Of a stretch of DNA of 64,000 bases, positions 1-35,682 are shown one piece after another. Within the stretch, counting starts at the first letter, position 1; each line of letters begins with the position of its first letter. The stretch is from a bacterium (lineage in GTDB: Bacteria > UBA10199 > 2-02-FULL-50-16 > JAJFLM01): positions 1,088,001 through 1,152,000 of the forward strand of contig CBDCFN010000016.1 in the NCBI GenBank assembly GCA_965216315.1, in the 5' to 3' direction. A program made the translations under genes and the position numbers. Under the pieces are notes generated by a model, which was given only the letters and a program-made list of their open reading frames with translations, was not told where the DNA came from and did not search any database.

Positions 1-1324
1 CCATGATGCGGTGGGAGATATAGGACAGGGGAGATTGTCCCGTCGTACGTGGATAGGGTAACTCTCCGGTCAAGAGTTCATAAAGCATGGCCCCGAGTGA
101 ATAGACATCCTGACGTGGGTCGGGTTTGTAGCCATAGATGGCTTCGTAAGAGGCGTATTCAAGCGTACAGTTAAGGCGAATATCCTCTTTTTTCGGTTCG
201 ACGTATTCTGAAAGTCGCAGTGCGATACCAAAATCAGCGAGTTTAATCGTTCCATCTTCAAGGACGAGATAATTATCCGGCTTAATGTCGCGATGAACGA
301 TACCACGGGCATGGCAGGAGGTTGCCACTCTATGAATAAGATCACGCAGGATATTGATCGCTGCTTCCATGCTATGAGCCTTATTGAAAAAATATTGGGT
401 GAGGGTGCCTTCTTCCGCATATTCCATGGCGAGAAAGGGGGCCCCCGTAGAGGTGTGCCCGGCGCCGTAAATCTGAATGGCACCGGGAGGGTTGTCTTTG
501 AGCAATCTGACCTCATTCTCAAATCGCGTCATGGCGGCTTGCTGCCGAGAGGCTAAATGAATAATTTTAAGCACGGCGGTTCGTTCCACGTTCCCTATTA
601 GATGCTGTGTCGCTAAATAGGCATGCCCCTCGCCACCGGATGCTAACCATTTGAGGGTGTGGAAATTAGAAGGGTGCTGTTCGCCTGAATGTTCAGCCAG
701 GCGCAATAAATAGCCCTTCTCATCGGAGGTGATATCGGCCGAGAAAGGGCCCTCTTTTACTTCTTCAATTCCTTCAACTTCATCTTCACCGCGATCGACG
801 ATGTAGGTGTCAATGGACTGCTGGATCGCTGCGGCGGGAGCTTCTATGGCCGCCGCCATACCTTGGATGGTTTTTAGGGTCATCTCACGGGTCTGGCGCG
901 TGTCGATATCATCTTCAACGGCAGGAGTTTCATCAGATTCAATGTGAAATATTTCTCTCGCATGGCGATCAATTTCACTGATGTCATTAGATTTCGGCAG
1001 GGCCAGGGTCGTGATCAGGCTGTCGATGAGCAGCTGACTGCTGAAAAGCTCGCCGGTTTGTTTCATTGATGACTGCTCTAGACCCATAAGCGCTTCGTCT
1101 ATATTGAAAATAAGGAGACGGCGCGCTTCGCGCGGTATAACCTCGAAATTTCGGACCTTCATTCTGAATTCTGTCCCTGTTGCGACAATCTCGCCAAGAT
1201 GCATTTCGGGTTGTTGCTTGCATGTTGTATAGAGAGTCTGGACCATGCCGCGATATTGGGTGAGGGGACCACTGGCCGCGAGGAGCGCAGAGGTTTGAAA
1301 TAATTGGGCCGTATTCATCAACAT
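1..1324 (-). CDS. Ser/Thr protein kinase (Hanks type) with ~220 aa N-terminal extension; 3'-truncated at window edge
   Basis: Missing from the ORF track. Manual translation from ATG 1324 (MLMNTAQLFQTSALLAASG...) gives an open frame with LASGGEGHAY, AVLKII, HRDIKPDN (His codon 293-295, in frame), DFG and DVYSLGAMLYELLTG. Starts 4 nt after the upstream kinase stop. Confidence 0.92.
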   Translation of the reverse strand, partial: MLMNTAQLFQTSALLAASGPLTQYRGMVQTLYTTCKQQPEMHLGEIVATGTEFRMKVRNFEVIPREARRLLIFNIDEALMGLEQSSMKQTGELFSSQLLIDSLITTLALPKSNDISEIDRHAREIFHIESDETPAVEDDIDTRQTREMTLKTIQGMAAAIEAPAAAIQQSIDTYIVDRGEDEVEGIEEVKEGPFSADITSDEKGYLLRLAEHSGEQHPSNFHTLKWLASGGEGHAYLATQHLIGNVERTAVLKIIHLASRQQAAMTRFENEVRLLKDNPPGAIQIYGAGHTSTGAPFLAMEYAEEGTLTQYFFNKAHSMEAAINILRDLIHRVATSCHARGIVHRDIKPDNYLVLEDGTIKLADFGIALRLSEYVEPKKEDIRLNCTLEYASYEAIYGYKPDPRQDVYSLGAMLYELLTGELPYPRTTGQSPLSYISHRIM

Positions 1325-1328
1325 GAGC

Positions 1329-4292
1329 TTACCGAGTCAAGGTGGATACCATGGGTGTGGGGACGGCACCCTGTTCCGCGGTTCTTAATTTGATAACGGG
1401 GTTAAATCCTACCAAGGCTAAGGCTGAGGTGTCATGGACGGGGATGGGTTGAGCTATCTCCAAGTCTTTAGGCGTGAAACTATTGTAAGGAGCTCCTGCC
1501 GTAAAATACCAGTGATCAAATGGATTGTCTGTTTTGACGTACTCAAGCCCTGAATAATCGAGTAACATGTTAGCGGCAGAGCTGCCATCGACTCGCAATA
1601 GAGTCCTAACCCCGCTCACCATAAAGCGGACGGCTTGTTCCGGTCCCATTTCTCCCATGATTGAAAAGGGCGAAAAGTCGAGCATGGGATAGTTGTCAAA
1701 AAAACCGTCAAAATCGTTGGTCGGGATGCGCGCCGGAACCTTAAAGCCGGGAAATCGCCAGACGGCGATCCCTCTCCGTGTATCATCCCCCCAGGGATAA
1801 ATGCGGCGATCATTGCCGCGCATCGCGCGTTTCCATTCATTGAGGTCCGCCGGAAGGACGGTGTAGCCGTATTTTTTGATAAAATCACTGTAGGCATATC
1901 TTAAATAATGGACGGCATGCGCATAGCCGACGCCGGTTACGGCCGCATTTTCGATGAGTGGTCGATCATTCCTGTCTCTTAAAGTTAATGATTGATTAAA
2001 TTGGCCATTCAATAAGGCCATGTGAACATCTTCGTGCCAATGAGCGGGGATTGCATTGGCGAAGGCTGCCAGTGCTTGTTGCCGATTTTTTCGTTTACGC
2101 CGATTAATGAGGCGTCGTGTTGCAATCAAAAACTTTAGATAATCCTTGTTTGTTACCTTTGGCCCAAGCCAGTAATCGTAAGGAACGATTCGCAAATCTT
2201 TCTTGGGGATCTTTTCACTGAAACGACTCCTGAAATCACGGACGGCAACGGGACCAGCGGGAACGACAATGCCATCGAGTGGTAATGATTCACGATGATA
2301 ACGCGGTATTCGCAGAGTATGTGGTGATGAAGAAGGTCGTGCCGGTACGGGAACCCCAATTGGATGATAAAGCGGGTGATCAACCATGAGGTAATGGGAG
2401 TTGCCACGTGGAACTTTAATGATATTCTGAGGGATGCCGCGCGTTGTCTCCTGATAACCTTGCCACTTCAGTACGCCGTGAACATCCTGAGAGTGGCCGA
2501 TGGAAACTGTATAGTTGCTGTCATTGGGGTCCGCACCATCGAAGTCGAGTTGTATGCTGATGCGCCGGCTAAGCATGGGGAGCTGCATGCTCTTGGGTTC
2601 ATATCTCTCCCATTCCCTAATGAGACTCTGCCGTTCGCCTTCATTGCCGCGCATGTCGGCCCATTTAACCAGGTCGGAGATTCGATTGACGATCTCTTGT
2701 AAAATTGCGCCTTTAGGGTAGAGTTTGTAGGCATCCTTATATTCTTGCAGGGCCCTTTGTTGGTGATGTTTCCACTCCAGTTTGTGTTCAGCCGCAAGCT
2801 CCTTGTCAGGTTCTTTTCTTCGGAGGATCTTAAGGTATTCAGTCTCTGCTTGAGCGGCCGCTTGTTCATGGGCACGTGCTTTGTAGGTGCTCAAATCGAC
2901 GAGCAGGGCCTCAGCATTGGGGTAGCGTGCATCAATGTCTCGGGACATCGCCTTAAGCACAATGCGATCAAGTTCTGCCGGAATTTCTCGATCGGGAGAA
3001 ACTTGGCTGGGTCGAGGGGGGTCAATCTGTGACTTATCGAGATATTGACTGATATGATTCTTGCGGTGATCATAGGGGAGCTGGCCTGTGAGTAATTCAA
3101 AGAGTAGGACGCCGAGGGAATAGACGTCGCGCGTGTAATCATCTGGGTGCTGTTCGAGCCAGGCCTCCATGGGCATGTAGGGTGGTGTCCCTTGAACATT
3201 TTTTGTTTTCTGCTGTGATATCTGTTCAATGGTTTGGGCAATGCCGAAATCTCCAAATTTCAAAGAGCGCGCTTCTTTCGAGCGTACCATGAAGAAATTT
3301 TCCGGCTTAATGTCCTTATGGACAATGCCAATCGTGTGTGCTTCGTCAACGGCAGCGGTCGCTTGCAAGGCAAGTGTAATAATCGTTTCAAGGTCGAATT
3401 CAATTTGACCATCATTTATCTCTTCAATATGCTCCATGAGATTACCGTGCATGCGTTCCATGATGATGAACGGTTCGCCGGCTTCACTTTTTCCCGTGTC
3501 ATGGATAACAACGATGCGACGATTTTCATCTTCCATGCGTCCTTGAAGTCGGGCTTCGTTGCGAAAGTATTCCATATGCTCCGCGGCATTCTCTCCGGTC
3601 TTATTGATGACTTTGATCGCAACGAAACGGTCCATTTTGACGTCATATGCTTCATAGACGAGGCCTCCACCGCCTTCTCCAAGCACGTCGGTAAGCTGGT
3701 ATTGAATTTCATCGCGTCCACTGATGCGAAAGGGGATGGGATCCTCACGGGTTGGAATTTCTTGAGACGTGTCATCCGAGCTGATGACAACTTGCTCAGG
3801 TTCAGTGGCTTCAACTTCCGTACGAGTCTTGCCGAAACGAATTCCTTTGCGGGAGCGCAAATGGCCTATTCCGACTAAGGTACTGTGCCGAAGTTGCTGC
3901 CAGGGAGGGCTCCAGAGTTTTGTTTGGCGAAAGAGCCGGTCTAAGGCTTCCTCGGCGGGCTCATTTTGCCGCGGCAGGAGTTCGTACAGATAAAGATCGT
4001 TGAGGAAGGTGTTGAGCGCAATCTGTGTGGCCGGATTCGTGGTGTAGGCCAATAATAAATTGTCGCGTATCATTTCGGCGTTCTTGATCACGTCCTCAGG
4101 CATGTTCATTTCAATGAGACCATTGGTTAGCTGACTCATCGGGGGGACGAGTTGTTGAACGCCGATCGCGTCGTGTGCGGCGCCGAGCGCATGAACTTGC
4201 GTGACAGCTTCAATATAGAGCTGGCTAGCCGTTGTGCCGCTGGATGCCAAGAGAGATGAAGCACCCAAACTCGTGACCGGTGAGAAGAGCAT
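1329..4292 (-). CDS. Ser/Thr protein kinase with C-terminal degenerate FGE-sulfatase/SUMF1-like domain
   Basis: Kinase motifs GEGGGG, VAIK, HKDIKPEN, DFG, GTPPYM, DVYSLG. C-terminal VTNKDYLKFL and EWKRAMRGNDRRIYPWG match the FGE-family pattern. Start moved to ATG 4292 (AGGAG upstream; the ORF-track start lies within the promoter motif). Confidence 0.88.
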   Translation of the reverse strand: MLFSPVTSLGASSLLASSGTTASQLYIEAVTQVHALGAAHDAIGVQQLVPPMSQLTNGLIEMNMPEDVIKNAEMIRDNLLLAYTTNPATQIALNTFLNDLYLYELLPRQNEPAEEALDRLFRQTKLWSPPWQQLRHSTLVGIGHLRSRKGIRFGKTRTEVEATEPEQVVISSDDTSQEIPTREDPIPFRISGRDEIQYQLTDVLGEGGGGLVYEAYDVKMDRFVAIKVINKTGENAAEHMEYFRNEARLQGRMEDENRRIVVIHDTGKSEAGEPFIIMERMHGNLMEHIEEINDGQIEFDLETIITLALQATAAVDEAHTIGIVHKDIKPENFFMVRSKEARSLKFGDFGIAQTIEQISQQKTKNVQGTPPYMPMEAWLEQHPDDYTRDVYSLGVLLFELLTGQLPYDHRKNHISQYLDKSQIDPPRPSQVSPDREIPAELDRIVLKAMSRDIDARYPNAEALLVDLSTYKARAHEQAAAQAETEYLKILRRKEPDKELAAEHKLEWKHHQQRALQEYKDAYKLYPKGAILQEIVNRISDLVKWADMRGNEGERQSLIREWERYEPKSMQLPMLSRRISIQLDFDGADPNDSNYTVSIGHSQDVHGVLKWQGYQETTRGIPQNIIKVPRGNSHYLMVDHPLYHPIGVPVPARPSSSPHTLRIPRYHRESLPLDGIVVPAGPVAVRDFRSRFSEKIPKKDLRIVPYDYWLGPKVTNKDYLKFLIATRRLINRRKRKNRQQALAAFANAIPAHWHEDVHMALLNGQFNQSLTLRDRNDRPLIENAAVTGVGYAHAVHYLRYAYSDFIKKYGYTVLPADLNEWKRAMRGNDRRIYPWGDDTRRGIAVWRFPGFKVPARIPTNDFDGFFDNYPMLDFSPFSIMGEMGPEQAVRFMVSGVRTLLRVDGSSAANMLLDYSGLEYVKTDNPFDHWYFTAGAPYNSFTPKDLEIAQPIPVHDTSALALVGFNPVIKLRTAEQGAVPTPMVSTLTR

Positions 4293-4299: not shown

Positions 4300-4326
4300 T
4301 TTTCGCCAATCATCTTCGATAGTTGT
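4300..4326 (-). promoter_or_regulatory. Recurrent sigma28-like element, copy 1 (ACAAC-N15-GCGAAAA)
   Basis: Minus strand reads ACAAC tatcgaagatgattg GCGAAAA, 7 nt before the kinase ATG. Confidence 0.65.
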
Positions 4327-4434: not shown

Positions 4435-6273
4435 GTGAGCCTGGCAGTATCTCAGCTCGGTTTTTCGTCGAGTTTTGTCGGGATGGGTGCAATCTGCGCA
4501 TCTTTGCCGGCGCGCCCGATTAATCTCGGTCGAGTGCCAGCCCTCGATCACTTCATATCCCAGCCCCCCTCTAACGACCAAATTCGACCTAGTTGGAGCA
4601 GCCAACGTTCTACGGGTTCCCGGCATATTCTGGCCGCCGCACCGACGCGGGGTGGCGTGTCAACCGCGACAACCGTGGGTCCCGGCGGGCTCCGTGGCAG
4701 TGGCGGAGGTGGTCCCATTCAGCCAGGACACGTCTTTAAGCTGCCGAGAGGCGGCATGATTGTTTATACCTCTGCAGGGTGGCTTCAGATTGGTGTGCCC
4801 ATGTGGACCAACAAAGATGCGCGTTGGCTCTACGATCTAGCGGATGGCAGTCAGGCGAGTCCGGAGCAAATTCCTCACATCATGCCCACAATCTATATCT
4901 TTGATCTCGATTATGTGCCTGCAACGGACGGGCTTATTCCTGCTGATTTTCTGCAGTATATGAATTTTGTTACGCGAACCGCGCATAACCCGAAAGGAAT
5001 TACCTTTGAAATGATCGCGCCGGATAATGCGACGGCACGTCGGCTGGAAGACTATCTCAACTTAGTTTTCTTAGGCCCCGATGATCCTGATTTGTCCGAG
5101 CGCGTTCGCCAAGAGTATCCTCCGGGCGCGACCGGAGTGCCTGATTTGCTGGCTGAGATGCATCAGGGATTTCCGGCGGCAGCTCCTGACGTATTGCGCC
5201 GGATACACGCTATGGACGCAAACAATGGTTTCGCCACCGGTCAGGTGACTGTGCGCAAGATTGGTTCTCAACTCTATGAGGTGCAGGATGGGACTGATAT
5301 CACTCAGGTGGATCTGGCGCAGGCTCCGATCCGCGGAGTGAACTTAGCTCAAAGCCTTCCCTCATGGGAATCGCCCGCCCATGAAGATGTCTGGAATGGC
5401 GTGGTGAAACAACAGCGTCCAGGCATTTGGCCGATAGGGACGGGCCATGGGTTTACTGCGGATAAAGAAACCAGCGGATTTATTATTTTTAATGGGGGCC
5501 GTGCCTTATTGGTGGATCCACCCTCAAATACAGATGAATTTCTGGTGACCAACCAAATCCCGCTGGCCATGGTGCATGGTGCACTGCTGACGCACGGTCA
5601 TACGGACCATTATGGCAATGCGATTCCCAAGCTGATTTCAATGTTGCCGAGTCTTAAGCTCTACACGACGCCGACTATCTATGACATGTTGCAGGAGCAG
5701 TATGCGTTATCATTAGGCGCCAACTTTTCAGGCGGGCTGGGTCGCTGGACATTCGATCCGATAGCGCCGCAGGAGTTTAAACAGATTATTGGCATGCATT
5801 TTCGGCCCGAGTATACTTTTCATAGCATTCCGACTTTAGGTTTCGATATTTATCGTCGCCCCGTGCAGGATCGCGGTGAGCGTATCGTCATGTTTACAGG
5901 CGATACAAACGCCGATCATGAGCGCATTTTCGATCACACGCAGACGGCTAAGGATGGAACGCCCCCCCTGATGAGCTATGAGCGCGCTCAAAATATTATC
6001 CGCCACGTCGATGGAGTGCTAATGCCCCCCCGGGGTGCACGACCGCCTGTTGTCCTGATCGATAACGGGATTGAGCCCTTACACACGCCCCCGGCGGCGA
6101 CGCAAAAGCTTCTTGTCGAGGCGATTCAGCGTGGTATCGATGTCTCCCGGATACGGGTCTATCATATTGACAGTAAGGAGGCCCGTCGTCATGGCTTGCC
6201 GGAATGGCTGGAAGGGTGGCGCGGCTTTATCGACCTTTCTCAGTATTTTCAGAGGTTTAGAAGCAGCCCCTGA
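4435..6273 (+). CDS. Metallo-beta-lactamase-fold hydrolase, possible cyclic-nucleotide phosphodiesterase
   Basis: THGHTDH (HxHxDH), FHSIPT, GDT and PLHT motifs. LPRGG..T..G..Q.G.P and GHGF....TSGFII....LLVDPP segments recall an MBL family often fused to cNMP-binding domains (recalled, not searched). Start at GTG 4435 after GGAG; the low-complexity N-terminal extension is ~100 aa. Confidence 0.75.
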   Translation: MSLAVSQLGFSSSFVGMGAICASLPARPINLGRVPALDHFISQPPSNDQIRPSWSSQRSTGSRHILAAAPTRGGVSTATTVGPGGLRGSGGGGPIQPGHVFKLPRGGMIVYTSAGWLQIGVPMWTNKDARWLYDLADGSQASPEQIPHIMPTIYIFDLDYVPATDGLIPADFLQYMNFVTRTAHNPKGITFEMIAPDNATARRLEDYLNLVFLGPDDPDLSERVRQEYPPGATGVPDLLAEMHQGFPAAAPDVLRRIHAMDANNGFATGQVTVRKIGSQLYEVQDGTDITQVDLAQAPIRGVNLAQSLPSWESPAHEDVWNGVVKQQRPGIWPIGTGHGFTADKETSGFIIFNGGRALLVDPPSNTDEFLVTNQIPLAMVHGALLTHGHTDHYGNAIPKLISMLPSLKLYTTPTIYDMLQEQYALSLGANFSGGLGRWTFDPIAPQEFKQIIGMHFRPEYTFHSIPTLGFDIYRRPVQDRGERIVMFTGDTNADHERIFDHTQTAKDGTPPLMSYERAQNIIRHVDGVLMPPRGARPPVVLIDNGIEPLHTPPAATQKLLVEAIQRGIDVSRIRVYHIDSKEARRHGLPEWLEGWRGFIDLSQYFQRFRSSP

Positions 6274-6292: not shown

Positions 6293-6319
6293 ACAACAAT
6301 TTTGCCCCCCGGCCGAAGA
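6293..6319 (+). promoter_or_regulatory. Recurrent sigma28-like element, copy 3 (ACAAC-N15-CCGAAGA)
   Basis: ACAAC aattttgccccccgg CCGAAGA, 15 nt before ATG 6335. Confidence 0.68.
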
Positions 6320-6334: not shown

Positions 6335-9300
6335 ATGTTAGGACTCAACGCACAATATAGCCTCACCCAGGCGGGTGTGATGGCCGCTGTTTCTACGGCG
6401 GGTCTACGCCATATCTATGGGATAGCCGGGACGCTTGAGAATAACCTGCGCCTTAATATCCCGATGGAGAGTATTGCCGAAACGTTGGCCCCGCAAGTGG
6501 CTCAGCTTGAATGGGATCAGAAGGGTAAACAGCCGCAGCTCATACACCAAAATCGCATGCTCGAGCGTATTGTCGCCGGCACAGTCTATCCCGATGCCGA
6601 CGGTAGAAAAACCGACGCGCATGTCGTTTTGGGATCCATTTACCATGCGATTGAGCGGATCAATCCGCAGCTCTATCAGGAACTGTCCGGTTTTGCGGGC
6701 AAACTCACTTTGCCGCCGCCATCGATGTCATCTCGACGGAGGACGACAGGACATTATTCAAGCGCCGCGCCACCGGCTGCGACTGTCGTGCCGAAACATC
6801 GTGAAGGCCAAATTGAATGCCTGCATTGTCAGAGTTGGAATCCCGTTAGTAAGAGTTTCTGCGGTGACTGCGGAGAAGACATTTCGGATGATTCTCAATA
6901 TGTGCCGCGGGCGCAAAACATGCGCGGAACAATCTTGTTTACAGACTTTCAAGGATTTACCGATATGAGTCAGTCAATGCCGGCAGAAGTATTGTTCGGG
7001 TGGCTCAATAGACAGTTCAATCTATTGGGAGCCGAGATCATGCGGCAAGGGGGATGGTTCGTTAAAAACATCGGCGATGCGATCATGGTGGTCTTTAATC
7101 AACACGAAGATCATGCCCGGCGTGGAGTCAGTACAGCGGTTCGCATGTTGCAGATTCTTGAGCAGGTCAACCCGCAGCTCAAGGGCATGGGCCTTCCGGC
7201 CTTGCAAATGAGGATTGGCGTGCACACAGGGAATATTGCAGTTGGCTATCTCGGTGGGCCTGGTTCAAAACGAGCGGATGCGATAGGCCGTGCCGTTAAT
7301 TTGGCTTCACGGCTGGAGAGTTTCAAATTGGAAAAGGGAGCTCGAACCATAAATGTTCCTGACGGAAACCGCGTCCTTGTCTCCGGTGCGACCCTGTCAG
7401 AACTAGCCGGAGGCTTTGAACATAGCTTCATTGATAAAGTAGCTTTCAAGGGAGTTGAGCAGCCGGTTGAAGTTTATCACATTCAAGGTGAGTTGCCGGG
7501 GGCCAGTGTCGCCGACCGCTATGCAGGTTCCCAAAGCCAGTTTCGGGGGCGTCGGCGAGAAATGGATCAATTGCAAGCGACCTTTGTTCAAGCGATGCAG
7601 GGACAGCCTCAGTTGGCACTTATCTCCGGCGAGGCGGGCCAGGGAAAGAGTCGACTCGCGCTTGAATTCTTGAATTCAATGAAGGGGCCGCGGGAACGTC
7701 ATATCAAAGTCATAGCCGCACGTGGGGTTGATAGGGATTATCATCCTCCCTATGCCTTGATGAGCGATGCCCTGACGCACTTGGCCGGTATCGAAGCCGA
7801 TGATGAGTTGGAAGAGATTGAGGTCAAAATTCGGAGTCTGGTTTGGTTGTCAAAAGGTCTTGGAGCTGAAGAGCAAGAACAGATGGCGCAGTTGCTGGGA
7901 CGCTTGATGGGGATTCCCTTTCGAACGGAGTTTTCCCCGCAGGAACGGCTGAAGCGCGAGACGATAGAAATGCGCCAAAGAGTCTTCGATAATATTGAAT
8001 CAATGGCTTCAGACCAAAATGTCTTGCGTATGGCAATTCATCGCGCTGTCATTCAATTCTTTCAAGAACATTCCCGCTATTTTTCCCTAATACTTTCTCT
8101 GGAAGATGTGCATTGGTCCGACCAGGAATCATTGGAGCTGTTGCACGAAGTATTCGCATCGCTTGAAGACCGACCGGTAATGGTTGTGGGGACCATGAGG
8201 CCCGAATTTGATACGGGACCCGGTTTTCAGCTCGAAGATATTTTTGCAGGGGATTATAAGGCCGAGCCGATACAGCTCCGTGAGTTATCGATGACGGACA
8301 TGCGCTCCATTGTACAAGACATACTTGGTGAAAGCTCTCAAACGGATCCGGAAGTGGTTAATTACGTCATCTGGCAAGCGGCCGGTAATGTTTTTTTACT
8401 GCATGAAATGGCCCAGGCGGTTAAGGATGGTTGGTTGCAACGCGGAGAGACACCTGAAGAGTGGCGTTTGGTGGGTGCGCATGATGAGCGTCGCACCGTC
8501 GGTGCCGATAATTTTTTACAGACGCGCCTCGAACGATTATCTCCGGCCGAACGCAGTGTCGTTGACTATGCGGCGGTAATTTCCGATGCCTTTGATTTAC
8601 AGTTAATACAAGAATTGGGGATCCCCAATGCGGGCGTTCATTTAGGGCAACTGGTTCAAAAACAGATCCTTCATCAAGACCGACAAGGTAAGTACCGCTT
8701 TCGCCATGATATGATGCGTGCAAAGGCCTATGCGATGATGAGTCATGAAACGCGCCGTGACCTGCATCGCGACATGGCGGAGTTGCTGGTTGAGCATGAA
8801 GTAGAGGACAAAGCTCTTATAGCGTATCATTTGGATAAGGGAGAACAGACGGTAGCGGCGGCCCGCTATTATTTGGATGGCGCCGAACAAGCGCAAGAAC
8901 GCGCACTCTACCGGCAGGCGCTTAGATATTACGATCGTGTCTTTGCCTTGGGTCGCGAAGAAGATAATCAATTGGCTTTGCGGGGTTTGTTGGGGGGGAA
9001 TGAAGTCGCTCTGGATATGCGCGATACCGAATCGGCCTATGCGCGTATCGAATTGGCAGCAGATCTCTTGCAGTCAGGTATTGAACGTGAAGTCAGATCT
9101 CAGTATTTTTATCGCCTCGCCCATACGTTGCAAGTTGACCGTAATGATGAAATCAAAGCGAATTTGTTCGCTGCTGAGCAGGCCGTAAAAAACGCACTAA
9201 AGCGATACGATGACGTCGAAGTATCACCTATGAAAGCGCAATTGTTGGCGACGTTGGGACGGATTTACGCGGAACGCAGGGACTTTCAGGTGGGGCAAAC

Positions 9301-10804
9301 CTATATTCGTCAGGCGATTGTTACGGCCAAAGCGGCTCATGATGATGATGTGGTTGCGGAAACCTATCTCCACCAGATGTATATGGACCTGCAGTATGGA
9401 GACTATGGGTCGGTTATCAAGTTAGGCAATGATGTCGATGCCTTGCTCAAATCCCCTAAGTTTGCCAAGCGCCGGATTGCCCGAAACGTGAATGTAGGAG
9501 GCGCGCACATCAATCTGGGTAATTACGAGGAGGCGCTGCGCATTTATCAAGTGACGGAGACGCTGTCGCGTGAAAAATTTGCAGGGACCTACCTTCCCAA
9601 TATCGTTCCTAACGTCGGGACCTGTTTGCGTCTCCTGGGTCGATCGGAATTGGCGCTCCAACATCTCGATCGTGCGATTGAACTCTTTAGCCACCAACCC
9701 AACGCCTTTATGGCGGGGGTGACGCAACTCTATCGTGCGCTGACTCTCCTCGACCTTAAGCGCTATGACGAGGCCGACGAGGCGGCGACCCGAGTCTATG
9801 CCGTTTCACAGGCGGGGAATGAGCCCGATCCAAAATTAGAGGCGATGGCGCACATGGCTCATGCCCAGATCCAATTAGCTCAAGATCAACTGCAAGCGGC
9901 CGAACAAAGTAGCGCTGAAGCCTATCGATTGTTGTTGGCATCTGAGTGGCATATTGAGGAGTTTGATTTAGAGATTGCGCTGACACATGCGCGCATCCTG
10001 TGGAAGCAGGGTAAGAGCGAGGAGGCGTGGCAGGTCCTTCATGGAACCGAGCAGGTCAAGGGGGCCAGGCAGGAGCTTGTGCTACGGGCAGAGAAACTCG
10101 ACTTGGCGTTGCAGGCGAATTTCTATCATCGGAATCGGGTCAATGCGGCGATCGTTCAGATGTGGGAAGCTATTCAGTTAGAGAGGTTGCGAAGTAATAG
10201 TAACGCTAGCCTGGGGGCTATCGTGCAGGAAGCGCTTACGCGAGTTCAGCCGGGCATGTTGACGCCTGATATTGAGGCTTATGCGCAGCAGGAGCCAGGG
10301 AAGCTGTCGGCGCTGAGAGAAGTCGGTAATCATCAGCTGGTTGGGGTTCTACTTAACTCACCATATATAGTCACGCTGGGAACAGTACTATCAAGGAAAT
10401 TAGAAGAGATGGGGGCTGCAGAAACGATGGAAGCCGGACTTTCATTGACCCGTGCCGTGTGGCGCCCTTCGTTTAATGAAGATGGCAGGCCCATTGTTTA
10501 TTGGGATTTTGATCTTGATTCCGACAATGTGCAGATCTTAAGTGCTTTAAACACCATTGGAAATGTTAGGCGTCACATTCATGCGACGTATGAAGGAGAT
10601 GTGAGCTACAGTGATGGAGTCATTAAAGTTACCTTCAACTTAACGCAAGAAACGGAGACCTTCACGACGGACCAATTTGGAGCTATCGAGTTACTCATTG
10701 GCGCGACCACCGATGGGCGCTCCGTTTTGGCGCTGCGCGCTGAAAAGGGTGCCTTTACAGCGCGACCGGATATCTTACTCCAGGACTTAGCCGAAGGTCT
10801 CTAA
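6335..10804 (+). CDS. Class III adenylate/guanylate cyclase - AAA/STAND-like ATPase - TPR protein with zinc ribbon
   Basis: CLHC..CGDC zinc ribbon; cyclase motifs TILFTDFQGFT, VKNIGDAIM, RIGVHTG, AVNLASRLE; Walker A GEAGQGKS and Walker B LSLEDVHW; TPR-like helices. Extra unassigned N- and C-terminal regions. Confidence 0.9.
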   Translation: MLGLNAQYSLTQAGVMAAVSTAGLRHIYGIAGTLENNLRLNIPMESIAETLAPQVAQLEWDQKGKQPQLIHQNRMLERIVAGTVYPDADGRKTDAHVVLGSIYHAIERINPQLYQELSGFAGKLTLPPPSMSSRRRTTGHYSSAAPPAATVVPKHREGQIECLHCQSWNPVSKSFCGDCGEDISDDSQYVPRAQNMRGTILFTDFQGFTDMSQSMPAEVLFGWLNRQFNLLGAEIMRQGGWFVKNIGDAIMVVFNQHEDHARRGVSTAVRMLQILEQVNPQLKGMGLPALQMRIGVHTGNIAVGYLGGPGSKRADAIGRAVNLASRLESFKLEKGARTINVPDGNRVLVSGATLSELAGGFEHSFIDKVAFKGVEQPVEVYHIQGELPGASVADRYAGSQSQFRGRRREMDQLQATFVQAMQGQPQLALISGEAGQGKSRLALEFLNSMKGPRERHIKVIAARGVDRDYHPPYALMSDALTHLAGIEADDELEEIEVKIRSLVWLSKGLGAEEQEQMAQLLGRLMGIPFRTEFSPQERLKRETIEMRQRVFDNIESMASDQNVLRMAIHRAVIQFFQEHSRYFSLILSLEDVHWSDQESLELLHEVFASLEDRPVMVVGTMRPEFDTGPGFQLEDIFAGDYKAEPIQLRELSMTDMRSIVQDILGESSQTDPEVVNYVIWQAAGNVFLLHEMAQAVKDGWLQRGETPEEWRLVGAHDERRTVGADNFLQTRLERLSPAERSVVDYAAVISDAFDLQLIQELGIPNAGVHLGQLVQKQILHQDRQGKYRFRHDMMRAKAYAMMSHETRRDLHRDMAELLVEHEVEDKALIAYHLDKGEQTVAAARYYLDGAEQAQERALYRQALRYYDRVFALGREEDNQLALRGLLGGNEVALDMRDTESAYARIELAADLLQSGIEREVRSQYFYRLAHTLQVDRNDEIKANLFAAEQAVKNALKRYDDVEVSPMKAQLLATLGRIYAERRDFQVGQTYIRQAIVTAKAAHDDDVVAETYLHQMYMDLQYGDYGSVIKLGNDVDALLKSPKFAKRRIARNVNVGGAHINLGNYEEALRIYQVTETLSREKFAGTYLPNIVPNVGTCLRLLGRSELALQHLDRAIELFSHQPNAFMAGVTQLYRALTLLDLKRYDEADEAATRVYAVSQAGNEPDPKLEAMAHMAHAQIQLAQDQLQAAEQSSAEAYRLLLASEWHIEEFDLEIALTHARILWKQGKSEEAWQVLHGTEQVKGARQELVLRAEKLDLALQANFYHRNRVNAAIVQMWEAIQLERLRSNSNASLGAIVQEALTRVQPGMLTPDIEAYAQQEPGKLSALREVGNHQLVGVLLNSPYIVTLGTVLSRKLEEMGAAETMEAGLSLTRAVWRPSFNEDGRPIVYWDFDLDSDNVQILSALNTIGNVRRHIHATYEGDVSYSDGVIKVTFNLTQETETFTTDQFGAIELLIGATTDGRSVLALRAEKGAFTARPDILLQDLAEGL

Positions 10805-12180
10805 TTTACCGTAAAGATCAGTGAAGCTGTTCCTCCCGTGATAGTACTCATCGTTATTAAGTATTGCTGTCCCACACTTAAGGCAGGGGATGGGTTGGAA
10901 GCCGCGCCAAACGGGACGGCATCGGCAATGTTGTAGTTCCCATAAGTCACGGGTGATTGCAGTGGAATCAGATTGTCATTTTCATCCTGGCCACTCACGA
11001 TGCCATAAATCGTGCTCCCAGTACCGGCAGTTGATACCAGGAGGGTTGCCGCTTGCCCGAAAGGCCAGCTGATCGTCGGAAAGCTGCCGCTACCGGACAA
11101 CTGGATGTCGGCATCCGCGCCGTTTGATCCAATCGTGCCATCGATATTGCTGAAGCCGTCGATACTGAAGGAACCGGATCCGGTATTGTCATCATCTTCG
11201 GTTGCATCGTCCAACTCGTCTAGGGAATGCATGACGACGGATTGAAAATTAGACCCTTCCGAGATAGTTACATTTTCCATGACGCCGCGGATGTAGCCGT
11301 CTTGAAAGACGACAAAGTCCCAAAGTCCGACAGGGACGTTACTAAAATTATTGTCTCCGGCGGCTCCCATGTAGATCGGGCTTAAGTTGGTGCTCTGACT
11401 CTTGACTAGGTTCGAAGTATTATCCTTCTTGGCACCGACCAGGTGACTATTTTTCTTAATGTCGATTAAATTGCCGACAGCATCCTTCATCTCGACCAGG
11501 ATGCGCCCGGTTTTGCTTAGGGCAGACTTAATAAAGCCGGTGCCTTCATTATTCTCGGCTATGAAGATGCTCAAATCCAGCCTATGCTCGTCGAATTCCT
11601 TTTTCATGGTTCCGGAGTTTTCATTCCAGGCTTCAGCCGGGCTCTTCCCGGAATCAATTGATTTTTGAATGCCGTCTTCAATCCTTTTGACGCGCGCTTT
11701 GGTGTTAAGTCCAAAATTAAGCAGTGGCAGTGCCATTGCGGTCAGGATAGCGGCGGCCCCGAGGATCTGAAGCACAATTCCGGCCTGCAAATCCGGGGAG
11801 TCTTCGTCGAGTGTGAAGGCGACCGTGCCGCCATTGGTCGTGATAAAGTTGACCAGGGCGGTTTCATCGGCCTGAAGTTGTTGTAGGTCAGCGAGGGCCT
11901 CATCGAGCTGGGGAACAGCCTTATCCTTAAAGTAATTGAGTACCTTGTTGCCGGAATTTTCATCGAAGACGGTGATATCGCCAAATTCATCATTGATTTT
12001 GTCAAAGTCGCTGATGAGTTCACTGATCGTATTTGTTAATTGTTCCGAGGAGTCGTTTTGGCTGGATGCCGTTGATTGACCTGTGTTGCCACCACCGCCG
12101 CCGCAGCCAATGAAACTCATGCTCACGACGAGAGACGGGACTAGAATATTCCGGATTAGAAAGGACTTGATGGACATCAC
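10801..12180 (-). CDS. Hypothetical lipoprotein
   Basis: Signal peptide with lipobox-like FIG-C then poly-Gly/Ser linker; AGGGGG upstream; internal hydrophobic stretch; beta-rich C-terminus. Confidence 0.75.
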   Translation of the reverse strand: MMSIKSFLIRNILVPSLVVSMSFIGCGGGGGNTGQSTASSQNDSSEQLTNTISELISDFDKINDEFGDITVFDENSGNKVLNYFKDKAVPQLDEALADLQQLQADETALVNFITTNGGTVAFTLDEDSPDLQAGIVLQILGAAAILTAMALPLLNFGLNTKARVKRIEDGIQKSIDSGKSPAEAWNENSGTMKKEFDEHRLDLSIFIAENNEGTGFIKSALSKTGRILVEMKDAVGNLIDIKKNSHLVGAKKDNTSNLVKSQSTNLSPIYMGAAGDNNFSNVPVGLWDFVVFQDGYIRGVMENVTISEGSNFQSVVMHSLDELDDATEDDDNTGSGSFSIDGFSNIDGTIGSNGADADIQLSGSGSFPTISWPFGQAATLLVSTAGTGSTIYGIVSGQDENDNLIPLQSPVTYGNYNIADAVPFGAASNPSPALSVGQQYLITMSTITGGTASLIFTVN

Positions 12181-15567: not shown

Positions 15568-15594
15568 GCAACTTCTATTATGAGGGCCCGATGA
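15568..15594 (+). promoter_or_regulatory. Recurrent sigma28-like element, copy 4 (GCAAC-N15-CCGATGA)
   Basis: GCAAC ttctattatgagggc CCGATGA, 6 nt before ATG 15601. Confidence 0.72.
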
Positions 15595-15600: not shown

Positions 15601-17229
15601 ATGGGGTTCGGGTTTGCACTTACATCGACGCATACTCCGACGGCGGCACTAGCTGCCGCGGGTGTAACTTTCAACCGAGCGACTTTCTTTGATGATGTGC
15701 TCCAAACTCAAGGGCTACGCCAAGTCTACCCCATTCGCGACCCTGCAGTTATTACGGAAGCCTTTGCTGCCTATCAAGGGAGTGACGCAGATCTCTTCAG
15801 TTTAGCGGGGACCGAACAAAGTCTCGATGTTGACAGCGGCACTGTTCCACTAACCTATTTGGATAGCACGGCTTCGACCAAGATGATTCCCCACGTGGAG
15901 GCGGCCGAAGCCAATGCCAATCGACATTACGCCAACAGCCATTCGGTTGCTCACAATCCTGCCATGATCTCTACTATCGATTTTAAGAATGCTCATCGCC
16001 GCGCACTTGATTTTGTGGGGGCTAATCCAACCACGCATGTTGCAGTTTTTGATGGCTCTGGTGCAACAGGTCCACTCAATCGAGTGGCAAGAAACCTTTT
16101 TGTCCATGGACGTGATGAAAAAAGGAACACAGTTCTCTTTACGGGCAAAGAGCATCATGCCAACCAGTTACCTTGGCAACGTTATGCCGGTAAGCTGCAT
16201 TGTCATGGTATTCCCGTAGATGGCGTTACAGGTTGTGTTGATATACCTGCCTATCGTCAGTTGCTTCAAGATCATAGTGAACGACTTCGTTTGGTCGCGG
16301 TCAATGGAGTGTCTAATGTGACCGGTGTGGTAGAGCCGGAATTGGAGCTGATGGCTCATTTGGCCCATGAGGTGGGTGCTCTGTTGTTGGTAGATTATGC
16401 TCAGGGCTTGGCTCATAGGGCGATCAGTATGCAAGAGCTGGGTATCGATTTTCTGGTTGCCTCAGGACATAAGACCTATGCACCCGGATCACCCGGCCTT
16501 CTAGTAATGCCACGAGACAGCACACCTCAGTATCCCGACAACGTGGGCGGTGGCATTGTTGAGTCCGTCGATATTGATGATTTTCAACTAAGCAGTAAAT
16601 TGCCCGATCGGGAAGAAGCAGGAACGCCAGATATTATCGGTGGAATTAAGTTTGCGGCGGCATTGGAGGCGCTAGCTTGGGTCGGTATGGATCGAGTTTG
16701 GCAGCACGAGTTGGAATTGACAGAGCAATTGGTGTCAGGATTGATGGCAATATCAGGCGTTGAGGTTTATGGTGATACAGATTTGGCCAGAACACCGCGT
16801 GCCGGTGTAGTAACATTCAATATTGATGGTCTCCATCATGCGATTCTGAGTCAGGCCTTATCGGATTATTTTAATATTGCAACCCGGAATGAGTGCTTTT
16901 GTGCTCAGCCGTATGTGAAATCGCTCTTTCATATGACGCCGGATCAATTGCGACGATTTAAGCACCAGCTTGCAGAGGGTGATCGGAGTAAGGCTCCCGG
17001 GATGGTAAGAGCCAGCTTGGGTATTTACAATACAACCAATGACATCCATCGATTGTTGGTAGCCGTGGCATGGATTAGCGCGAATAAGGATCGTTTGGTT
17101 CAGGAATACTATGTCGATACTAATGGCAATGCCTATCGTCATGACAAATGGCGGGTTGATGCCAATAGGTACAGTTCATTACCCTCTAGCAATGGTGACT
17201 CCCTTTATTTCCCATCGGTCGACAGCTGA
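15601..17229 (+). CDS. Class V aminotransferase / cysteine desulfurase-like (SufS-type) with ~85 aa N-terminal extension
   Basis: YLDSTAS, EHHANQLPW, SNVTG, VDYAQ, SGHK (PLP Lys), EAGTP, RNECFCA, RASLGIYN. Confidence 0.9.
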   Translation: MGFGFALTSTHTPTAALAAAGVTFNRATFFDDVLQTQGLRQVYPIRDPAVITEAFAAYQGSDADLFSLAGTEQSLDVDSGTVPLTYLDSTASTKMIPHVEAAEANANRHYANSHSVAHNPAMISTIDFKNAHRRALDFVGANPTTHVAVFDGSGATGPLNRVARNLFVHGRDEKRNTVLFTGKEHHANQLPWQRYAGKLHCHGIPVDGVTGCVDIPAYRQLLQDHSERLRLVAVNGVSNVTGVVEPELELMAHLAHEVGALLLVDYAQGLAHRAISMQELGIDFLVASGHKTYAPGSPGLLVMPRDSTPQYPDNVGGGIVESVDIDDFQLSSKLPDREEAGTPDIIGGIKFAAALEALAWVGMDRVWQHELELTEQLVSGLMAISGVEVYGDTDLARTPRAGVVTFNIDGLHHAILSQALSDYFNIATRNECFCAQPYVKSLFHMTPDQLRRFKHQLAEGDRSKAPGMVRASLGIYNTTNDIHRLLVAVAWISANKDRLVQEYYVDTNGNAYRHDKWRVDANRYSSLPSSNGDSLYFPSVDS

Positions 17230-17248: not shown

Positions 17249-17275
17249 GCAACTTTTAGACCTAGCGGCCGAAAA
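17249..17275 (+). promoter_or_regulatory. Recurrent sigma28-like element, copy 5 (GCAAC-N15-CCGAAAA)
   Basis: GCAACTTT-N11-GCCGAAAA, same geometry as canonical TAAAGTTT-N11-GCCGATAA; 10 nt before ATG. Confidence 0.75.
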
Positions 17276-33167: not shown

Positions 33168-33194
33168 GTGTCGGCGGGACGAGGTGATTGTTGT
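33168..33194 (-). promoter_or_regulatory. Recurrent sigma28-like element, copy 6 (ACAAC-N15-CCGACAC)
   Basis: Minus strand ACAAC aatcacctcgtcccg CCGACAC. Confidence 0.62.
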
Positions 33195-33262
33195 GAGTGT
33201 CGCTGAGTTTCAGTGTACCTTGGTACACGCGGCTATTGTGTTAATTTCGAATATTTTCGCAA

Positions 33263-33289
33263 ACAACATATAGTAAGAAGGATCGATAA
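33263..33289 (+). promoter_or_regulatory. Recurrent sigma28-like element, copy 7 (ACAAC-N15-TCGATAA)
   Basis: ACAAC atatagtaagaagga TCGATAA upstream of ORF 33340. Confidence 0.7.
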
Positions 33290-33339
33290 GGGTCTCGTTG
33301 TCGCGGGAGAACAGTGCTTAATAAGGAAGGCAGAATTCT

Positions 33340-35682
33340 ATGCTTCAAGCTATTTCAGCGACAACAGTCCTCGCCAGTACCAGCTCCGGTGCAAGCTTTG
33401 CAATGACGGCCCCACAGCTCCTGGCCCGTCTCGATTCGAGCATCCTCTTTCAAGCCGATTTAAATCTTACGGAAACAGCTAGGTTGGCACAGCATATGTT
33501 GCAATTGGGCTCCGGTCCGGAGTCACTGGTGGGGCTGCTCAGCACACCTCAGGGAACTTTGCCACCATCGACGCGAAACCATCTGCGCAGTGAAGCCTTT
33601 CTCGCTACTGCGACGGAACCAGGTCGAACCAGTGCGTTAGAACGTTTCGTGCATCACTATTTAGATGTCCTTGATGATCCGGAACGGCGTCGAAGCATAA
33701 GCTCTGGTGGCGCCATGCCTTACAACTTCTTTCATTCACCTCCTTTATTTGACTATTCACCTCCGCCGGGAAATCCTTTTGGTGTGGCAAAGATCGATAT
33801 ACCGAGCACACCGTCAGTGCGATTCTCATCAGATGGCTATTATCGCTTATTCGGTTTCTCTTCTATGCCGGGGGCATTCCGAGTGATGGGGCAGTTGCGT
33901 GGTATGCGAGGTCGATCCTTGCGCTCGTTGGAGACCTTGGGGCCACTGCAGTGGGAAGGAGAGCTCTATGAAGGGGCGCTGTTTCCAAACGTCGAGTTAG
34001 TGCGTACGGCATGGCGACGTGAACCGAGCCCTAATGAGCAGGTTGTCTTTAAGGATATCCTCGACGTGATGCCGGCGGATATTTCGAGTCTCAGTGCGAT
34101 GGTGCGCGATGTCGATCGCCTTGATCTCAAGGCGCTGTCACCGGCACAGGCCCGCGAAGTAAGGCTCCTGGCCTGGGTCTTATATAAACTGGCCGATGAG
34201 CAGATGGCGCAGACCAATCGCAAGCGGGCCGAAGAATTGCTAACTGATGCCGTCAGCTTACTTGAGGCCTGGCAACGGGCACATCGAGAACATCAATTAA
34301 GTCTCGATCCATCAGTCGGCACTTTGACGGAAAGTGTCCTCGGTGTTTGGAGTGAGCAGAATGATATGTGGCAAATGCACAACCGGAGTATTGATGGGTT
34401 GATCGACGCCGCAACGAGCAGCTTAGGCCTCAGCGGGCGGCAATTGGGAGTCAGGCAGTTGAGTGGTGCTGCTGAAGTGGTCGCAAGCTATCTTATGATG
34501 GGATATCCCATGCTCGCGCATCAAATTCTGCACTATGACATTGAACCCCACTTAACGAGTCCGGAACAAAACGCAATGAGTCTCAGTGTCTTGCATTATC
34601 TGGGTCGTGATCTCGGCCAAGATGACTTTGATCCCCAGCGTCAAGAGGCGATGCGGCAGTTGAAGGCCCACGTTGAGGCCATTCATGAAAAGACTCACTG
34701 GCAGACCTATCAGTCGGCGGAATGGATGCCCAATACGGATGAGCGCGGTCGCAGCGTCTATCGTTGGAACGCGATTATGATCCGCAATATGGTCGTATCG
34801 ATGCGGACGTACTTGGGTTTGGATGCGGCCGATGAGAAAGAGATTTACGAAACGGCGAGTGGGGAACAATTGTTTCCCATCCAAGATGCGACCGATAGTT
34901 TGTATGCTCAACAGCAGGGGCTTGTTACTCTTTTTGAACATTATGATAATGCTGAGCCGGCTTCGGCCTATAGCGAGTATCGCGACCTAAACAATATCAA
35001 ACGTCAAGTGGAGCAGGCGCGTGCGTCATTGGCGAACAAGATCGAGAGCGCGCCAGCGTACCTTAGTGAGATATTCGCGTCACTGCTCGAGCAGATCAAC
35101 ACGACGCAAGTAGAATGGTTGGCGGCCTTTCCGGAGGGAAAGGGGCCGGCCGATATACTATCTCAGACTGGAAGACATTTTCTGGATGCCGCCCAGTTGT
35201 TAATGGATATGGGGGACAGTGGTGAGGCGCATGAGACGATTCTCAAGGCTGAGAAGTTGCTCGGCGAGGCGGCTCAAATGGATGCCGAACTCGTTGCTGA
35301 GCTTCTTGCTGCGGCCGAAGAGCTTCACATTGAGATTCATCTTGCGCGCGAGAGTCGATTGGTGCTGGGGACAGCTGGGATAGGCTATTATGGCAATGAA
35401 GACGGAATGGCCTCCTATGATCTCGGGACGCTGACAGGGCCTCGCGCTATAACAGCCGATTTTGATGCTTTAGGTGCATTTCATCATCCCGGTCCGTTCT
35501 TGTCAGCGCATCTAGTGGGAGGTGCTCGGATCAATCCTGCCACGCATGGTACTCGTGCGGGATTTACGGAAGGGGTTGGAAAGTACATCGTCAGAGTCAG
35601 TGACATGGAGGAAGCTCTCCGTAGGCTAAGTTTGGAGTCGTCTGAAGATGGCGGCGTTCAGGATGATGGCGACGATGATTAA
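33340..35682 (+). CDS. Hypothetical 780 aa mostly helical protein
   Basis: Long ORF with AAGG-containing upstream region, Ser/Thr/Ala-rich N-terminus and acidic tail; no family recognised. Confidence 0.8.
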   Translation: MLQAISATTVLASTSSGASFAMTAPQLLARLDSSILFQADLNLTETARLAQHMLQLGSGPESLVGLLSTPQGTLPPSTRNHLRSEAFLATATEPGRTSALERFVHHYLDVLDDPERRRSISSGGAMPYNFFHSPPLFDYSPPPGNPFGVAKIDIPSTPSVRFSSDGYYRLFGFSSMPGAFRVMGQLRGMRGRSLRSLETLGPLQWEGELYEGALFPNVELVRTAWRREPSPNEQVVFKDILDVMPADISSLSAMVRDVDRLDLKALSPAQAREVRLLAWVLYKLADEQMAQTNRKRAEELLTDAVSLLEAWQRAHREHQLSLDPSVGTLTESVLGVWSEQNDMWQMHNRSIDGLIDAATSSLGLSGRQLGVRQLSGAAEVVASYLMMGYPMLAHQILHYDIEPHLTSPEQNAMSLSVLHYLGRDLGQDDFDPQRQEAMRQLKAHVEAIHEKTHWQTYQSAEWMPNTDERGRSVYRWNAIMIRNMVVSMRTYLGLDAADEKEIYETASGEQLFPIQDATDSLYAQQQGLVTLFEHYDNAEPASAYSEYRDLNNIKRQVEQARASLANKIESAPAYLSEIFASLLEQINTTQVEWLAAFPEGKGPADILSQTGRHFLDAAQLLMDMGDSGEAHETILKAEKLLGEAAQMDAELVAELLAAAEELHIEIHLARESRLVLGTAGIGYYGNEDGMASYDLGTLTGPRAITADFDALGAFHHPGPFLSAHLVGGARINPATHGTRAGFTEGVGKYIVRVSDMEEALRRLSLESSEDGGVQDDGDDD

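Follow-up and report, generated by a model that had tools for sequence, protein, structure and literature searches.

Type III signals, sigma-28 regulons and needle-less type III secretion systems (T3SS) are all known already, and type III signals in general have, to our knowledge, resisted definition by sequence. Here we describe a short uncharged leader at the N-terminus of unrelated proteins, together with a sigma-28-type promoter that precedes many of their genes, starting from seven examples in a stretch of 64,000 nucleotides (positions 1,088,001 to 1,152,000 of contig CBDCFN010000016.1, assembly GCA_965216315.1; this whole stretch is henceforth the window) and extending to the bacterial genome to which it belongs (2.96 Mb, 16 contigs, 98.3% complete). 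We give a probability of about 0.5 to the reading of the leader as an N-terminal export signal carried by the late, sigma-28-controlled substrates of a needle-less type III system. Within the family of the window's genome (family f1) an unusually stereotyped export signal would be the best-supported reading of the pattern.

According to passages of one report (PMC3338616), the Hop type III substrates of P. syringae follow three N-terminal compositional rules, and their signals are 'highly mutable' and have no sequence consensus. The leader resembles these signals in lying within the first 20–30 residues, in being Ser-rich with an aliphatic residue at position 3 or 4 and no acidic start, and in standing on unrelated carriers. 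It differs in possessing a [LVM]LA[SA][SGT] core at a fairly fixed distance from the start, in excluding basic residues and in the Pro that often follows the core; export is a prediction here. For early flagellar subunits, portions of Bryant et al. 2022 (PMC8983047) describe a two-part signal in which an N-terminal hydrophobic signal is combined with a gate recognition motif docking at FlhBc. The leader likewise has a hydrophobic tip (residues 2–4) and, at a set distance, a second hydrophobic element, the LLA core (residues 13–20), and in both cases unchaperoned substrates would carry their own signal; the apparatus encoded in this genome also keeps FliG-, FliM- and FliN-type parts and a FliA-like sigma factor. 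However, the spacing in the leader is shorter, its motif differs from the gate recognition motif (FxxxΦ), and its carriers are enzymes and orphans instead of axial subunits; docking of the leader would be a prediction.

The T3SS* of Myxococcus xanthus, as presented in parts of two reports (PMC12075869, PMC10849154), consists of a sorting platform and an export apparatus without secretin, needle or translocon and works with the Tad-like Kil pilus in contact-dependent predation and prey lysis; in those parts its effectors are still only 'potential'. A further report that bears on this system is Abby and Rocha 2012 (PMC3459982). The present genome similarly encodes a sorting platform and an inner-membrane export apparatus, with no needle or rod in Pfam searches (no search was aimed at translocon or tip). 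Unlike the Myxococcus system it has no Tad/Kil system but a single T2SSE-family ATPase beside the sole large secretin, and a FliA-like sigma gene forms part of its T3SS cluster; the sigma-28-type promoter class is absent from two Archangium genomes (0 and 4 matches, control 1 and 1). Export of ordinary metabolic enzymes has a precedent in Chlamydia, where portions of PMC9251005 list enzymes secreted by type III secretion, e.g. phosphoglucomutase CT295. There an injectisome and a known host are at hand, whereas here a type III signal on such enzymes is predicted from sequence. A literature search returned no description of a consensus-type leader marking more than 100 candidate substrates with metabolic duplicates and leaderless-type starts, nor of such a T3SS in uncultured or predatory lineages, which is not proof that none is in print.

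An uncharged N-terminal leader linked to a sigma-28-type promoter

The gene set was a crude greedy longest-ORF call, yielding 2488 non-overlapping open reading frames (ORFs) of at least 90 aa. A leader filter (16 or more residues without D/E/K/R counted from a candidate start, a share of S/T/A/G/N/Q of at least 50%, and a maximum hydropathy over 15 residues of less than 1.9) kept 222 of the 2488, false positives among them, such as a lipoprotein-like ORF at window 10801–12180. The initial annotation had quoted seven leader peptides, described as uncharged and lacking the basic n-region of Sec or Tat signals. All seven are present in the window exactly as given, and all pass the filter, which was applied alike to every ORF and every candidate start. 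The strict form of the core, [LIVM][LM]A[AS][STAG] between residues 9 and 26, occurs in 47 ORFs with a mode at 13–17; the density of the core pentapeptide is 1.23 per 1000 in residues 1–20 (61 matches) and 0.14 per 1000 beyond residue 240 (55 matches), about nine times higher near the N-terminus than deep inside proteins. The pattern is not due to chance. Our working set comprised 115 leader proteins, 97 with a promoter and 18 with the core but no assigned promoter; at least 115 of the 2488 crude ORFs thus carry the leader, far more than the seven first noted.

The leader begins with Met, followed by aliphatic residues at 2–4, a Ser-rich segment at 5–10 and a Leu/Ala-rich stretch ending in [LVM]LA[SA][SGT] near residues 13–20, often with Pro 2–5 residues further on (23 of 47 seeds have a Pro within five residues after the core, and 4 of 47 have one in a window of the same length ahead of it). 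Among the 97 proteins with both promoter and leader, positions 2–4 favour L/I/V/F or S/T, positions 5–10 are Ser-rich, 11–18 are rich in Leu and Ala and 16–20 show Ala and then Ser; D, E, K and R stand at 0.03–0.08 of background (D/E 0.03–0.08x), and the median uncharged run is 28 residues. Ser is enriched 2.65x and Thr 1.97x over background. An alignment of 32 leaders (A1) has invariant Met1 and core Ala (A18), and the preceding Leu (L17) is found in at least 90% of rows. Leader codons 2–25 match gene bodies in synonymous use and in third-position composition (e.g. Ser AGY 36% vs 44%), so the constraint lies on the amino acids and a constraint at the RNA level was rejected.

The bodies to which the leader is attached are unrelated. 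BLAST comparison of the 115 proteins beyond residue 40 gives 95 clusters, of which 84 have a single member, and in a Pfam scan covering 69 of the 115 no family was found for 49 at E≤1e-4. The other 20 include phosphofructokinase (PFK), malic enzyme, RtcB, a RelA/SpoT-type domain, patatin, two FGE-sulfatase-domain proteins, pentapeptide repeats, a HAD hydrolase, a helicase, a soluble hybrid histidine kinase, an acyltransferase and four Laminin_G_3 proteins; a TauE membrane protein was probably included falsely. Another of the 20 is a leader protein of 2588 aa (G000:C16:1632121-1639887, minus strand), in which biotin carboxylase, biotinyl, ACC_central and carboxyltransferase domains are fused with a biotin-protein ligase; its look-up in the Atlas gave only fused-carboxylase clusters, mostly without recorded taxa, and no pointer to a target organism. 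Paralogues devoid of the leader, 23–39% identical, were found in the genome for 6 of 11 queried leader proteins: for the acetyl-CoA carboxylase two ORFs of the biotin carboxylase type (501 and 588 aa) and a separate one of 266 aa that matches its biotin-ligase part, then matches of 364 aa for PFK, 445 aa for malic enzyme, 383 aa for the patatin-like protein, a second RtcB, and two further class-V enzymes for the desulfurase-like enzyme. For the other five, the search of the genome gave just the query itself or another leader-bearing protein. Judging by these matches, the leader sits on second enzyme copies, and the copies that look like housekeeping ones are without it.

A position weight matrix (PWM) derived from leader genes converges on GCAACTTT-N11-GCCGATAA. 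At ≥16 bits it has 247 matches on the two large contigs vs 9 in an order-2 Markov simulation, and of the 252 sites genome-wide, 231 are followed within 150 nt by the start of an ORF of at least 80 aa. The E. coli sigma-28 consensus is TAAAGTTT-N11-GCCGATAA; the sites found here share its −10 box and 11-nt spacer but have GCAAC(TTT) instead of TAAAG at −35, number about 250 per genome, and occur in a genome in which Pfam searches found no flagellum. The initial annotation had proposed a joint promoter and leader module, and the two do go together: a leader-like N-terminus is found in 97 of the 200 ORFs linked to a promoter and in 125 of the 2288 others (odds ratio 16, p 5e-56). Of 231 promoter-linked ORFs, 46 obey all three P. 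syringae rules, as do 103 of the 2288 others, roughly a five-fold enrichment.

At 98 of the 252 sites the start codon of an ORF of at least 80 aa lies 5–12 nt past the −10 box, vs 9.3% of shifted control anchors, which speaks against true starts downstream of the leaders, as does the finding that relatives of the same family also hold leaders at the N-terminus. Of these close starts 76 are ATG and 64 belong to genes with uncharged N-termini, the remaining 34 of 98 being without leader; among genes with longer 5' untranslated regions (UTRs), 40 of 116 have an uncharged N-terminus. A spacing of 5–12 nt leaves no room for a ribosome-binding site, so many mRNAs of leader genes are probably leaderless.

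The leader genes of the window and their promoters are as follows.

1265..1324, minus strand: leader of Ser/Thr kinase 1, MLMNTAQLFQTSALLAASGP; Pkinase domain at residues 222–433
1329..4292, minus strand: Ser/Thr kinase 2, coding sequence of 987 aa; Pkinase domain at residues 198–458
4236–4292, minus strand: leader of kinase 2, MLFSPVTSLGASSLLASSG; matched by the leader profile A1, by construction since it is a row of A1
4300..4326, minus strand: sigma-28-type promoter of kinase 2; GCAAC-like −35 at 4322–4326, −10 at 4300–4306, PWM 20.8 bits
4371..4399, plus strand: weaker promoter-like site before the metallo-beta-lactamase-fold gene, ACGCAAC-N15-CCGAAGG, a regular-expression match
4435..6273, plus strand: metallo-beta-lactamase-fold (MBL) protein; Lactamase_B at residues 348–395
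4435–4512, plus strand: leader of the MBL protein, (V/M)SLAVSQLGFSSSFVGMGAICASLP; the weakest of the seven, without an LLAS core
6293..6319, plus strand: sigma-28-type promoter of the cyclase; −35 at 6293–6297, −10 at 6313–6319, 21.8 bits
6335..10804, plus strand: adenylate/guanylate cyclase with AAA_16 and TPR domains; cyclase domain at residues 199–384
6335–6403, plus strand: leader of the cyclase, MLGLNAQYSLTQAGVMAAVSTAG; alternative start GTG 6332
15568..15594, plus strand: sigma-28-type promoter of the desulfurase-like gene, 20.8 bits
15601..17229, plus strand: class-V aminotransferase (cysteine desulfurase-like), 542 aa; Pfam domain at residues 85–485
15601–15684, plus strand: leader added to the desulfurase-like enzyme, about 28 aa, preceding the family's normal N-terminus
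17249..17275, plus strand: sigma-28-type promoter of the cysteine-dioxygenase-like (CDO-like) gene, 27.2 bits
17286..18092, plus strand: CDO-like cupin, 268 aa; CDO_I at residues 146–254
17286–17348, plus strand: leader of the CDO-like cupin, MLALSTNVLALAPALLATTNS
33263..33289, plus strand: sigma-28-type promoter of the 780-aa orphan, 20.7 bits; 5' UTR of 50 nt
33340..35682, plus strand: 780-aa orphan; no family in Pfam
33340–33390, plus strand: leader of the orphan, MLQAISATTVLASTSSG

The domain identities first assigned to these proteins are borne out by Pfam: two Ser/Thr kinases, an MBL fold, a cyclase, a class-V aminotransferase, a CDO-like cupin and, for the 780-aa protein, no family. The quoted leaders also stand, apart from the start of the MBL protein, whose leader begins at GTG 4435, 4438 being wrong; this GTG lies 35 nt downstream of the promoter-like site, which is not among the PWM matches at ≥16 bits. 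Short spacings from the −10 box to the ATG are seen for kinase 2 (7 nt), for the CDO-like gene (10 nt) and for the desulfurase-like gene (6 nt), the layout of the last being as would be expected of a leaderless mRNA. Kinase 1, whose coding sequence (2–1324) runs off the window and whose complete ORF has 977 aa, starts 4 nt past the stop of kinase 2 and has no promoter of its own; it carries a leader nonetheless, which makes the leader a feature of the protein. The CDO-like cupin returned the query alone in a word-seeded search of 5.8 billion proteins, and the orphan had no homologue at E≤1e-5 among the proteins of 429–1365 aa in that collection.

The leader had also been said to open an extension of 85–220 aa before the catalytic domain. 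This range does not hold: the first Pfam domain begins 85, 146, 198–222, 199 and 348 aa from Met1 (the last in the MBL protein), and elsewhere the distance is between about 30 aa, as in the FGE-sulfatase and RtcB proteins, and about 220 aa. The desulfurase-like enzyme shows what is actually added. It has 648 homologues, about 490 aa long, in many phyla, and the 38 N-termini inspected among the best 120 of these 648 include ones from other phyla that, as anticipated, lack the extension, with shorter, charged N-termini ending in a conserved ..DFIGLDTxY.. segment. The window's enzyme has about 28 extra residues, namely the leader, ahead of the equivalent segment; an addition of about 28 aa is therefore upheld, and most of the supposed 85-aa extension is the family's normal N-terminal region. 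Across the phylum, 7 of 93 genomes have the gene. In G024, which represents a sister genus, the orthologue retains both leader and promoter, and orthologues in family f14 have no add-on, their own N-termini being uncharged with ..LAAS.. or ..LAAT...

The type III apparatus and its distribution

The proposal that an export system should be encoded is supported by the genome, which has one T3SS with a FliA-like sigma gene in its cluster and a single FHIPEP (SctV/FlhA) gene. The cluster contains an FHA/YscD-type protein (SctD), SctJ, the sigma factor, a weak FliG-like protein, SctL, SctN, SctO, a FliK/HpaP-like SctP, FliM- and FliN-like SctQ, SctV, SctR, SctT and an LcrH/SycD-like TPR protein; SctU is encoded away from it, and the ORF lists used for the apparatus began at 90–120 aa, with SctS not sought. 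The best family of the cluster's sigma factor is FliA/WhiG (TIGR02479, E 1.3e-38), at 133 bits, below the curated cut-off of 189.6. The nearest named SctV proteins are those of Archangium metagenome-assembled genomes (MAGs; 53% identity), with Chlamydiae at 46–49%. The apparatus genes are not preceded by a sigma-28-type promoter, but two genes directly 3' of the cluster are (strong sites), both with uncharged N-termini. As in FliA regulons, the substrates and not the apparatus would be under the promoter, and by analogy this order, apparatus first and sigma-28 substrates later, is the flagellar logic.

Other dedicated machines that had been suggested as carriers were also looked for. Type IV and type VI secretion systems (T4SS, T6SS), extracellular contractile injection systems (eCIS) and Tad loci are not in evidence: searches of the genome found no VirB4, T6SS sheath, phage-type contractile sheath or Tad, and a Peptidase_C39 exporter gave no match in it either. 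A strong secretin (988-aa ORF), an ATPase of the type II secretion system (T2SS) type and prepilin-type genes lie together at G000:C16:971852-985705, about 630 kb from the T3SS cluster. From two family matches and the N-termini, this locus is likely to be a type II system; that it might serve as the outer-membrane route for T3SS cargo is speculation by analogy with the Kil pilus and T3SS* of Myxococcus. A response-regulator gene just upstream of it (968658) has a 17.7-bit sigma-28-type site.

SctV was found in 91 of 93 genomes of the phylum. The promoter pattern CAAC-N16-CGATAA occurs 11–107 times in each of the 93 (0–12 for the reversed control) and 0–10 times (control 0–4) in five outgroup genomes with a related SctV, two Archangium MAGs among them. 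Of the sites found with the A1 profile, 32 are in the window's genome, which is largely by construction, 9 are in G025 and 1 is in G024, the other genomes having 0–4; with 1–20 first-look candidates per genome this search is insensitive, and absence outside family f1 is weak. G025 and G024 belong to family f1, and all nine of their inspected matches (8 in G025, 1 in G024) are true N-terminal leaders with ..LLAS(S).., 6 of them with a promoter site of at least 15 bits, whereas nine inspected matches in other families were spurious. The LLASS form was thus detected in 3 of 3 genomes (three genera) of family f1 only. For most of the nine G025 and G024 carriers the short N-terminal fragments gave no clear counterpart in the window's genome; one giant protein retains the leader, with 49% identity over 65 residues. 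A related pattern with a 17-nt spacer was collected in G064, G089 and G092, where 14 sites, not a fair sample, precede mostly charged N-termini (1 of 14 uncharged). In G089, from a distant family, CAACTTT-N13-CCGATAA stands 77 and 54 nt before ORFs (loci L138 and L142) whose N-termini are by eye SctV/FlhA- and SctU/FlhB-like.

Export signal or another role

Put together as a mechanism, the FliA-like sigma factor encoded inside the T3SS cluster would read the roughly 250 sigma-28-type promoters, about half of which drive proteins with the stereotyped N-terminus. From start codons 5–12 nt past the −10 box, translation would proceed on leaderless mRNAs, and the export gate or sorting platform would recognise the uncharged N-terminus, the hydrophobic tip and the second hydrophobic motif acting as a two-part signal. 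The proteins would then be passed unfolded across the inner membrane and onward to another cell or the periplasm. The cargo would consist of more than 100 mostly orphan proteins plus extra, divergent kinases, the cyclase, PFK, malic enzyme, the fused acetyl-CoA carboxylase, RtcB, the desulfurase-like enzyme and the CDO-like cupin. A fuller version is more tentative, and we think it somewhat doubtful: that a consensus-type signal of a needle-less T3SS marks more than 100 cargo proteins (about 5% of ORFs), by which a second set of metabolic and signalling enzymes, including the biotin-ligase fusion and an alarmone synthetase, is made from leaderless mRNAs and installed in another cell.

Several observations weigh against an export signal read by the T3SS. 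Pfam searches of the 98.3% complete genome found no needle, rod or flagellin (best needle match E 0.14), and the sole strong secretin adjoins the single T2SS-type ATPase, so that it is not apparent how cargo would pass beyond the inner membrane. The conserved LLAS core is atypical of known type III signals, which are without a conserved motif; a hybrid histidine kinase, a helicase and RtcB would be odd effectors; and about half of the promoter-linked genes have no leader. The distribution is also uneven, with the T3SS in 91 of 93 genomes yet the LLASS leader detected in family f1 only. Uncharged N-termini make up 4/26, 1/8 and 3/19 of promoter-linked ORFs in 400-kb samples of G012, G055 and G058, vs about 5% of all ORFs, and 0/5 in G001; the 11/19 of G004 are without LLASS, and one of them is lipoprotein-like. 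Finally, G016 (96% complete) has no SctV match, yet it has 53 promoter-pattern matches vs 0 in the control; either its T3SS is unassembled there or the regulon outlives the T3SS. Confinement of the leader to family f1 would fit a fast-evolving signal and would also leave room for another reader of the tag.

Such another reader is the first alternative, namely that the leader is a sorting tag for some other, unrecognised machine or destination, an internal compartment or a lineage-specific translocon, the T3SS being merely co-regulated. A tag of this kind would agree with an LLASS form confined to one family beside a phylum-wide T3SS, with the absence of a needle or dedicated secretin from the Pfam searches, and with the place of the leader on second copies of ATP- and cofactor-dependent enzymes, as with organelle targeting peptides; the defined consensus and the Pro after the core (23/47, vs 4/47 before it) are also more like a recognition or cleavage site than degenerate type III signals. 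Yet searches for a T4SS, T6SS, sheath or C39 exporter came up empty, no candidate specific to the family came to light, though no systematic search for one was made, and the regulon's sigma gene lies in the T3SS cluster. We regard this alternative as unlikely.

To a like degree we doubt that the leader has no role in export and is instead a stage-specific control element, for instance a tag for degradation or stability at the N-terminus or a sign of first codons adapted to leaderless translation. Its excess among genes with close starts (64 of 98, vs 40 of 116 with longer 5' UTRs), the regulators and RNA enzymes among its carriers, and the promoter class kept in G016 without a detectable SctV would all suit such a role. 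However, the equality of leaders and gene bodies in synonymous codons and third-position composition places the constraint on amino acids, leaders also occur on long-UTR genes and on the operon-internal kinase 1, and the 34 of 98 close-start genes that have none show that the leaderless layout does not force a leader. We know of no degron of this form.

Terminal reassortment has been described for type III effectors, and the resemblance among leaders might simply be inherited, a module of promoter and first codons having been copied onto new genes in this way and being residual rather than selected. Promoter and leader do travel together on unrelated bodies, and the desulfurase-like gene has gained both its promoter and about 28 aa relative to homologues. 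On the other hand, the promoter spacer is nearly without information (0.01–0.08 bits per position), which argues against recent copies, synonymous codons are randomised while the amino-acid pattern is retained, and the f14 orthologues, devoid of the add-on, have an uncharged N-terminus with LAAS or LAAT of their own, which points to selection for the motif. Inheritance would in any case explain origin and not function and is compatible with an export signal; as an explanation in itself we find it quite improbable.

Least probable of all is that the leader is a Sec signal peptide of an atypical kind, lacking a basic n-region and processed by signal peptidase I behind the small residues of LA-S-S/G: it is N-terminal, about 20–30 residues long and, as in Sec, Tat and lipoprotein signal peptides, has small residues after a Leu-rich stretch (A/S-x-S/G, resembling a −3/−1 cleavage site), but its core is not nearly hydrophobic enough (best 10-residue hydropathy with a median of 1.58 vs 2.79, longest hydrophobic run 4 vs 6, and 2 of 115 leaders at the Sec-like 10th percentile, in a comparison with 360 Sec-like ORFs of the same genome whose crude screen for a basic n-region and strongly hydrophobic core itself used a hydropathy threshold, so that the contrast is partly built in, the gap being wide), those 360 ORFs have N-termini of the normal type, and the carriers are ATP- and cofactor-dependent enzymes of cytoplasmic type. 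The initial judgement that the leaders lack the basic n-region of a Sec signal is sustained, none of them having a K or R within the first 10 residues. A Tat signal was likewise rejected (no twin arginine, Arg at 0.08x background in residues 2–25), as was a double-glycine/C39 leader (no Peptidase_C39 match in the genome, leaders without acidic residues).

If the leader is the export signal of the needle-less T3SS, the cargo list of such a system would be readable straight from a genome through promoter and N-terminal motif, and mutation of the short motif could show by which component of the export gate or sorting platform it is read. Such cargo, mostly orphans together with duplicates of central metabolic enzymes, would be out of the ordinary and would suggest that members of an uncultured phylum manipulate another cell or live in or on one. 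Start codons often placed at the predicted transcription start would moreover link leaderless translation with secretion.

Minor observations on the regulon and the window

Five paralogous genes (329–443 aa, G000:C16:2175864-2185613, minus strand) share an N-terminal C[DEN]LYGAS, which in four of them continues ..GLCRANPGTAYG, and which looks like a second kind of N-terminus in the same regulon. The stretch neighbouring them has some of the genome's strongest sigma-28-type promoters (23–27 bits), with long 5' UTRs. Three of the five genes begin or can begin with MGC, which is reminiscent of the N-myristoylation/palmitoylation motif that some injected effectors carry.

Leader proteins are somewhat denser on contig C15 (488 kb; 28 of 422 ORFs) than on C16 (83 of 1990), and leader genes stand several times in neighbouring runs, e.g. 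at C15:337-345 kb and C16:1538-1547 kb. Within the window, a 23.4-bit sigma-28-type site at 55204–55233 (plus strand) precedes a 516-aa ORF with a charged N-terminus and no leader, and a 16.2-bit site at 33168–33197 (minus strand), divergent from the orphan's promoter, precedes a 222-aa ORF that also has no leader. The desulfurase-like enzyme and the CDO-like cupin (15601–18092) are adjacent, each with its own promoter and leader, which suggests a cysteine- or sulfur-directed pair.

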